Shown: piece after piece, positions 17,468 through 20,689 of the stretch | Numbering within the stretch: the first letter of the stretch is position 1 | How the letters are laid out: each line of letters starts with the position of its first letter | Assembly (NCBI RefSeq): GCF_003334355.1 | Contig: NZ_QOWP01000041.1 | Direction: 5' to 3' (one strand) | Origin: Escherichia coli | Lineage (GTDB): Bacteria; Pseudomonadota; Gammaproteobacteria; Enterobacterales; Enterobacteriaceae | DNA: 28,749 bases | The notes under the pieces: generated by a model | Databases searched by the model: none | What the model was told of the DNA's origin: nothing | The model's input: only the letters and a program-made list of their open reading frames with translations | Position numbers and translations under genes: made by a program

Positions 17468-20400
17468 ATGCCAAAACGTACAGATATAAAAAGTATCCTG
17501 ATTCTGGGTGCGGGCCCGATTGTTATCGGTCAGGCGTGTGAGTTTGACTACTCTGGCGCGCAAGCGTGTAAAGCCCTGCGTGAAGAGGGTTACCGCGTCA
17601 TTCTGGTGAACTCCAACCCGGCGACCATCATGACCGACCCGGAAATGGCTGATGCAACCTACATCGAGCCGATTCACTGGGAAGTTGTACGCAAGATTAT
17701 TGAAAAAGAGCGCCCGGACGCGGTGCTGCCAACGATGGGCGGTCAGACGGCGCTGAACTGCGCGCTGGAGCTGGAACGTCAGGGCGTGTTGGAAGAGTTC
17801 GGTGTCACCATGATTGGTGCCACTGCCGATGCGATTGATAAAGCAGAAGACCGCCGTCGTTTCGACGTAGCGATGAAGAAAATTGGTCTGGAAACCGCGC
17901 GTTCCGGTATCGCACACACGATGGAAGAAGCGCTGGCGGTTGCCGCTGACGTGGGCTTCCCGTGCATTATTCGCCCATCCTTTACCATGGGCGGTAGCGG
18001 CGGCGGTATCGCTTATAACCGTGAAGAGTTTGAAGAAATTTGCGCCCGCGGTCTGGATCTCTCTCCGACCAAAGAGTTGCTGATTGATGAGTCGCTGATC
18101 GGCTGGAAAGAGTACGAGATGGAAGTGGTGCGTGATAAAAACGACAACTGCATCATCGTCTGCTCTATCGAAAACTTCGATGCGATGGGCATCCACACCG
18201 GTGACTCCATCACTGTCGCGCCAGCCCAAACGCTGACCGACAAAGAATATCAAATCATGCGTAACGCCTCGATGGCGGTGCTGCGTGAAATCGGCGTTGA
18301 AACCGGTGGTTCCAACGTTCAGTTTGCGGTGAACCCGAAAAACGGTCGTCTGATTGTTATCGAAATGAACCCACGCGTGTCCCGTTCTTCGGCGCTGGCG
18401 TCGAAAGCGACCGGTTTCCCGATTGCTAAAGTGGCGGCGAAACTGGCGGTGGGTTACACCCTCGACGAACTGATGAACGACATCACTGGCGGACGTACTC
18501 CGGCCTCCTTCGAGCCGTCCATCGACTATGTGGTTACTAAAATTCCTCGCTTCAACTTCGAAAAATTCGCCGGTGCTAACGACCGTCTGACCACTCAGAT
18601 GAAATCGGTTGGCGAAGTGATGGCGATTGGTCGCACGCAGCAGGAATCCCTGCAAAAAGCGCTGCGCGGCCTGGAAGTCGGTGCGACTGGATTCGACCCG
18701 AAAGTGAGCCTGGATGACCCGGAAGCGTTAACCAAAATCCGTCGCGAACTGAAAGACGCAGGCGCAGATCGTATCTGGTACATCGCCGATGCGTTCCGTG
18801 CGGGCCTGTCTGTGGACGGCGTCTTCAACCTGACCAACATTGACCGCTGGTTCCTGGTACAGATTGAAGAGCTGGTGCGTCTGGAAGAGAAAGTGGCGGA
18901 AGTGGGCATCACTGGCCTGAACGCTGACTTCCTGCGCCAGCTGAAACGCAAAGGCTTTGCCGATGCGCGCTTGGCAAAACTGGCGGGCGTACGCGAAGCG
19001 GAAATCCGTAAGCTGCGTGACCAGTATGACCTGCACCCGGTTTATAAGCGCGTGGATACCTGTGCGGCAGAGTTCGCCACCGACACCGCTTACATGTACT
19101 CCACTTATGAAGAAGAGTGCGAAGCGAATCCGTCTACCGACCGTGAAAAAATCATGGTGCTTGGCGGCGGCCCGAACCGTATCGGTCAGGGTATCGAATT
19201 CGACTACTGCTGCGTACACGCCTCGCTGGCGCTGCGCGAAGACGGTTACGAAACCATTATGGTTAACTGTAACCCGGAAACCGTCTCCACCGATTACGAC
19301 ACTTCCGACCGCCTCTACTTCGAGCCGGTAACCCTGGAAGATGTGCTGGAAATCGTGCGTATTGAGAAGCCGAAAGGCGTTATCGTTCAGTACGGCGGTC
19401 AGACCCCGCTGAAACTGGCGCGTGCACTGGAAGCCGCTGGCGTACCGGTTATCGGCACCAGCCCGGATGCTATCGACCGTGCAGAAGACCGTGAACGCTT
19501 CCAGCATGCGGTTGAGCGTCTGAAACTGAAACAACCGGCGAACGCCACCGTTACCGCTATTGAAATGGCGGTAGAGAAGGCGAAAGAGATTGGCTACCCG
19601 CTGGTGGTACGTCCGTCTTACGTTCTCGGCGGTCGGGCGATGGAAATCGTCTATGACGAAGCTGACCTGCGTCGCTACTTCCAGACGGCGGTCAGCGTGT
19701 CTAACGATGCGCCAGTGTTGCTGGATCACTTCCTTGATGACGCGGTAGAAGTTGACGTGGATGCCATCTGCGACGGCGAAATGGTGCTGATTGGCGGCAT
19801 CATGGAGCACATTGAGCAGGCGGGCGTGCACTCCGGTGACTCCGCATGTTCGCTACCAGCCTACACCTTAAGTCAGGAAATTCAGGATGTGATGCGCCAG
19901 CAGGTGCAGAAACTGGCCTTCGAATTGCAGGTGCGCGGCCTGATGAACGTGCAGTTTGCGGTTAAAAACAACGAAGTCTACCTGATTGAAGTTAACCCGC
20001 GTGCGGCGCGTACCGTTCCGTTCGTCTCCAAAGCCACCGGCGTTCCGCTGGCAAAAGTGGCGGCGCGTGTGATGGCTGGCAAATCGCTGGCTGAGCAGGG
20101 CGTAACCAAAGAAGTTATCCCGCCGTACTACTCGGTGAAAGAAGTGGTGCTGCCGTTCAATAAATTCCCGGGTGTTGACCCGCTGTTAGGGCCAGAAATG
20201 CGCTCTACCGGGGAAGTCATGGGCGTGGGCCGCACCTTCGCTGAAGCGTTCGCCAAAGCGCAGCTGGGCAGCAACTCCACCATGAAGAAACACGGTCGTG
20301 CGCTGCTTTCCGTGCGCGAAGGCGATAAAGAACGCGTGGTGGACCTGGCGGCAAAACTGCTGAAACAGGGCTTCGAGCTGGATGCGACGCACGGCACGGC

Positions 20401-20689
20401 GATTGTGCTGGGTGAAGCGGGTATCAATCCGCGTCTGGTGAACAAGGTGCATGAAGGCCGTCCGCACATTCAGGACCGTATTAAGAATGGCGAATATACC
20501 TACATCATCAATACCACCTCAGGTCGTCGTGCGATTGAAGACTCCCGCGTGATTCGTCGCAGTGCGCTGCAATATAAAGTGCATTACGACACCACCCTGA
20601 ACGGCGGCTTTGCCACCGCGATGGCGCTGAATGCCGATGCGACTGAAAAAGTAATTTCGGTGCAGGAAATGCACGCACAGATCAAATAA
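17468..20689 (+). CDS. carB: Carbamoyl-phosphate synthase large subunit
   Basis: 1073 aa with two internally homologous ATP-grasp halves ([24 protein letters not shown]... and [24 protein letters not shown]...). Confidence 0.97.

Follow-up and report, generated by a model that had tools for sequence, protein, structure and literature searches.

An ancient internal duplication in carB of Escherichia coli, plain in the translation and nearly erased in the DNA

Positions 17468–20689 (plus strand) of the stretch of DNA analyzed here are almost certainly an ordinary Escherichia coli carB locus, encoding the carbamoyl-phosphate synthetase (CPS) large subunit with two paralogous ATP-grasp units that arose by an ancient duplication. 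The stretch, referred to below as the window, is 28,749 nt long and is part of contig NZ_QOWP01000041.1 of E. coli assembly GCF_003334355.1. The repeat is plain in the translated sequence; in the DNA it is nearly erased and is faint on a dot-plot.

The internal duplication of carB is already known, is textbook material, and nothing new is added to it here. Its first description dates from the initial sequencing of the gene (Nyunoya and Lusty 1983, as cited in two reviews), and Charlier et al. are also quoted in this connection. The original prediction presented the duplication as a known feature, in agreement with this literature. Crystal structures of E. coli CPS explain it structurally; the structure papers reportedly give a low rmsd over most C-alpha atoms when residues 1–400 are superposed on residues 553–933 (PDB 1JDB). 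The two parts of the protein are truly paralogous, neither mobile DNA nor an artefact is involved, and the repeat can be set aside on that account.

The carB locus and its surroundings

The locus is an intact open reading frame that has an ATG start and encodes 1073 aa followed by a stop codon (ORF listing). The gene had been named carB in the original prediction, and searches of protein families, of the K-12 proteins and of known structures all lead to the same name. The product gives 1790 bits with NF003671, the NCBIfam equivalog model for CarB (cutoff 599), at protein positions 1–1068 and profile positions 1–1057 of 1058, and 1622.9 bits with TIGR01369 (cutoff 1027). It displays 100% aa sequence identity to K-12 CarB (b0033, accession number NP_414574.1) over all 1073 residues. 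Residues 1–1073, i.e. the full length, also match the E. coli CPS chains in the PDB (1BXR, 1JDB, 1C30, 1CE8, 1A9X). carB of E. coli PSS-12 has the same nt sequence (100% identity). All 5426 complete E. coli genomes contain a carB match, with a coverage of at least 80% in 5424.

Two of the 5426 complete genomes are without a carB place that covers at least 80% of the gene, some complete genomes show two carB places, and 3 of the 5430 carB matches in the genome collection are plasmid-borne.

The gene order around carB is dapB, carA, carB and caiF, followed by the cai operon, as annotated in the matching record. carA, which encodes the glutaminase small subunit, is at positions 16302–17450 (plus strand) according to the PSS-12 annotation and to TIGR01368 (508.6 bits, cutoff 307). 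It ends 17 nt upstream of carB, and the two genes form one operon. The start codon of carA is TTG at position 16302 in both the window and K-12 (the mechanical ORF list extends the reading frame to a GTG at 16275), and the CarA aa sequence differs from that of K-12 by a single residue, D227E. An Rfam match to the sRNA ES003 (positions 16202–16254, plus strand, 87 bits, gathering score 37) ends about 50 nt short of the carA TTG, so that it belongs to the promoter or leader region of carAB.

Two long open reading frames lie antisense to this region, at positions 17321–18655 and 18728–19831 (both minus strand; 444 and 367 aa). These were considered as genes and rejected as shadow open reading frames. 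They are in the codon-aligned antisense frame of carB, and they stay open because only 5 of the 1074 codons of carB are TTA, CTA or TCA. A search for protein family matches to the two antisense frames yielded none, apart from one meaningless match with E = 0.005.

Several other elements were seen elsewhere in the window. Positions 21376–21458 and 21466–21548, between caiF and caiE, are 83-nt direct repeats with about 95% identity and a period of 90 nt; an Rfam match to naRNA4 (nucleoid-associated ncRNA 4; positions 21430–21500, 70.7 bits) overlaps the pair, which is probably an intergenic repeat cluster of the REP/BIME type. The sok antitoxin RNA (Rfam, 122 bits) is found at positions 247–399 (minus strand) and adjoins the annotated mokC/hokC type I toxin locus. 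Three pseudogenes are annotated between nhaR and rpsT (positions ~3005–6983, minus strand) in the near-identical PSS-12 record. Two of them, a fimbrial protein and the T3SS effector espX1, are frameshifted, and the third, a fimbrial usher, is truncated. The open reading frames of the window are correspondingly fragmented in this interval.

Positions 1–28569 of the window align with E. coli PSS-12 with 99.97% identity and one gap that shifts the offset (blastn). The last 180 nt (positions 28570–28749) consist of the terminal inverted repeat and left end of IS1 (GGTGATGCTGCCAACTTACTGATTTAGTG...), an element that is multicopy in most E. coli genomes. caiT (about positions 27191–28569, minus strand) is interrupted by IS1 in its 5′ part and shows an open reading frame of 446 aa, as compared with the annotated 504 aa.

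A comparison with K-12 shows 26 nt differences in carB. All are synonymous and at third codon positions, and all are found within the last 1480 nt of the gene (positions 19210–20524, about 2% divergence), in the stretch coding for copy 2 of the repeat and for the allosteric domain. By comparison, only 2 differences from K-12 are present in the 3.5 kb at positions 15700–19209, which include the end of dapB, carA and the first 1742 nt of carB. This pattern suggests a recombination mosaic, with a putative homologous-recombination breakpoint inside carB. The breakpoint would be no more than about 75 nt away from where copy 2 begins, and it is very improbable that this closeness is anything other than coincidence. 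An ordinary E. coli recombination mosaic with a breakpoint placed there by chance is far likelier.

The repeat in the protein and in the DNA

The two peptides in which the repeat was originally noticed are at CarB residues 10–69 (nt positions 17495–17674) and 562–621 (nt positions 19151–19330), and they are identical at 31 of 60 positions. They are part of a much longer similarity. When the first 553 residues are aligned locally with the rest of the protein, residues 5–401 pair collinearly with residues 557–934, and 39% of the 378 pairs (148) are identical. This alignment has a Smith-Waterman score of 614, as compared with 39.9 ± 5.6 for 200 shuffled sequences (maximum 70), which gives a z value of about 100. 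With blastp the two copies show 37% identity over 397 columns (E = 1.2e-77, 242 bits), and 100 shuffles gave at most 24.6 bits. The original prediction that the N-terminal and middle segments of CarB are paralogous is thereby well supported. It had named a self-comparison lacking an off-diagonal signal as the result that would speak against it, and the protein self-comparison displays a strong off-diagonal.

A CPS gene duplication with 39% identity between the halves, each half binding one MgATP, is described in PMC6245113, and the self-alignment reproduces the 39% figure exactly.

Each copy consists of a pre-ATP-grasp domain followed by an ATP-grasp domain. Copy 1, the N-terminal unit (residues 5–401), is encoded at nt positions 17480–18670, and copy 2, the second unit (residues 557–934), at nt positions 19136–20269, both on the plus strand; the limits are from the self-alignment, Pfam supports both copies, and the assignment of copy 1 to the bicarbonate step is from the literature. 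Pfam CPSase_L_D1 (pre-ATP-grasp) is found at residues 7–125 and again at 559–670, and CPSase_L_D2 (ATP-binding) at residues 128–334 and 674–876. The generic ATP-grasp model PF02222 matches both halves as well. These assignments, which place the two domains at residues 7–334 and 559–876, are in accord with the earlier description of the similar segments as two ATP-grasp phosphorylation units.

Chance similarity, or convergence of unrelated nucleotide-binding domains, would be another way to account for two halves that resemble each other. The probability of this is vanishingly small, as the similarity is collinear over about 380 residues with a z value near 100 and an E-value of 1e-77, and the same two Pfam families are present in unchanged order in both halves.

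In the self-alignment R129 pairs with R675, R169 with R715, E215 with E761, H243 with H788 and N283 with N827, and the pairs Q285/Q829, E299/E841, N301/N843, R303/R845 and R306/R848 follow in the same way. These residues are known to line the two nucleotide and metal sites. Mutagenesis and structural work on the ATP- and metal-site residues of CPS was reportedly carried out by Stapleton (1996), Javid-Majd (1996) and Thoden (1997).

Behind each copy lies an accessory domain. An oligomerization domain comes after copy 1 (residues about 404–553; nt positions 18677–19126, plus strand), with a match to Pfam CPSase_L_D3 at residues 427–505 (E = 3e-25). An allosteric domain with an MGS-like fold comes after copy 2 (residues about 935–1073; nt positions 20270–20686, plus strand) and shows a match to Pfam MGS, PF02142, at residues 957–1042 (E = 6e-21). 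The two accessory domains were compared in order to see whether the duplicated unit spanned the whole CarB half. The search for similarity between residues 404–553 and 934–1073 gave a score of 24; the mean for shuffled sequences was 27.8, and 412 of 500 shuffles reached 24 or more. A review states that the oligomerization and allosteric domains of CPS differ distinctly in tertiary structure. The detectably paralogous stretch is only about 380–400 residues of each half of roughly 540 residues. The original duplicated unit may or may not have included the accessory domains, between which there is no detectable sequence similarity.

At the nucleotide level the repeat is much harder to see. The best blastn segment between the copies has 68% identity over 151 nt (47.3 bits; 100 codon shuffles reached no more than 32.8 bits). 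When the copies are aligned by codons, the nt identity is 51% overall and 0.53, 0.63 and 0.37 at the first, second and third codon positions, respectively. The chance value at the third position is 0.27, and since the observed value is not far above this, synonymous sites are close to saturation. The statement in the original prediction that the duplication is visible in the sequence holds after translation. It does not hold well for the DNA, where the off-diagonal is weak and broken.

A repeat search in carB yielded only four in-register direct pieces, 20–39 nt in length. Their spacings (1656, 1656, 1635 and 1632 nt) are each divisible by 3 and agree with the gaps of the protein alignment. 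Two further direct pieces (D1 with a spacing of 2808 and D5 with a spacing of 435) were rejected as off-register chance matches.

Age and origin of the duplication

A recent tandem duplication specific to this strain would also place a repeat within carB, as would an error of assembly or the activity of mobile DNA, yet the likelihood of any of these is practically nil. The copies have only 51% nt identity, with third positions close to chance. Long direct repeats were sought within carB as a sign of mobile DNA or a recent event, and only pieces of 20–41 nt were found; the same repeat search of the gene for inverted repeats gave none. All 5426 complete genomes contain the 3222-nt gene, with the coverage given above, and human CPS1 has both halves in unchanged order. 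The observation made at the outset, that mobile DNA does not explain the repeat, agrees with the lack of inverted repeats and with the presence of the gene in all complete genomes.

That the duplication is ancient, as the original prediction had it, is supported by the nearly randomized third codon positions and also by a comparison with human CPS1, in which each half of CarB is closest to its own counterpart. This comparison covers one distant lineage and is based on pairwise scores rather than on a tree. The N-terminal half of E. coli CarB gives 407.1 bits with human CPS1 positions 407–803 (phmmer), as compared with 231.4 bits with its own C-terminal half and 167.4 bits with the C-terminal half of human CPS1. 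For the C-terminal half of E. coli CarB, the best stretch in human CPS1 is at positions 961–1340. Since the orthologous halves are more alike than the paralogous ones, these scores indicate that the duplication predates the split of bacteria and eukaryotes. The internal CPS duplication has in fact been used to root the universal tree (Lawson et al. 1996, cited in PMC6245113).

The course of events that led to the two-unit gene can be pictured in more than one way. Two separate paralogous genes, encoding ATP-grasp synthetase subunits of a homo- or heterodimer, may have been fused at a later time, with no tandem duplication in place. A review sums up the origin of CPS as "gene duplication, translocation, and fusion", and the unlike accessory domains after each CarB copy are compatible with separate histories before a fusion. 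Both courses lead to the same present-day structure, however, and the window does not tell one from the other. In addition, the split or single-unit CPS forms of some lineages could be secondary. We regard a later fusion of separate genes as an unlikely course of events, although one with an appreciable probability. The preferred reading of carB is that of an ancient duplication that gave rise to two paralogous ATP-grasp units.

Predicted function and comparison with known systems

The CarB product of the window is predicted to synthesize carbamoyl phosphate with the use of 2 ATP, because its aa sequence is 100% identical to that of the biochemically and structurally characterized K-12 enzyme. 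According to PMC6245113 and a review, two MgATP molecules are used per carbamoyl phosphate formed, one bound by each CPS half. In the literature the N-terminal unit is described as the ligase, which makes carbamate by phosphorylating bicarbonate and capturing ammonia, and the second unit as the kinase, which phosphorylates carbamate. The labile intermediates pass through an internal tunnel of 96 Å. Both the assignment of halves to reaction steps and the tunnel come from the literature and are transferred on the strength of the 100% identity, as neither can be derived from sequence.

On the reading held here as almost certain, CarB consists of two paralogous catalytic units of about 390 residues each, at positions about 1–400 and about 553–933. 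In each unit a pre-ATP-grasp domain is joined to an ATP-grasp domain, and one MgATP is bound. As described in the literature, bicarbonate is converted by the first unit to carboxyphosphate, which reacts with ammonia delivered from CarA to form carbamate, and the second unit converts carbamate to carbamoyl phosphate. Both units go back to a single ancestral gene for an ATP-grasp kinase or ligase, by duplication and fusion before the divergence of bacteria and eukaryotes. The accessory domains behind the copies are non-homologous, for oligomerization after copy 1 and of the MGS-like allosteric type after copy 2.

The K-12 locus shares the operon context of the window (dapB, carA, carB, caiF).

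The synthetase moiety of human mitochondrial CPS1 (PDB 5DOU, 5DOT, 6UEL) also has two ATP-grasp units, in the same order as in CarB, and CPS1 is collinear with E. coli CarB residues 3–1038 (856 bits). Unlike CarB, it has a glutaminase-like part fused at the N-terminal end, all in one chain of 1500 residues. Human CPS1 uses ammonia and not glutamine. Its C-terminal domain binds N-acetylglutamate as an activator, as described in PMC4655335.

Biotin carboxylase (AccC), PurT and D-Ala-D-Ala ligase (Ddl) are single-copy ATP-grasp carboxylases and ligases. A review describes the ATP-grasp fold and acyl-phosphate chemistry as common to CarB and enzymes of this type. The single-copy models match each CarB half alone, always in two stretches, with E-values of about 1e-30 for AccC, 1e-25 for PurT and 1e-22 for Ddl; all these matches score far below the curated family cutoffs. 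AccC, PurT and Ddl have one ATP-grasp unit per chain, whereas CarB has two in tandem that are specialized for successive steps.
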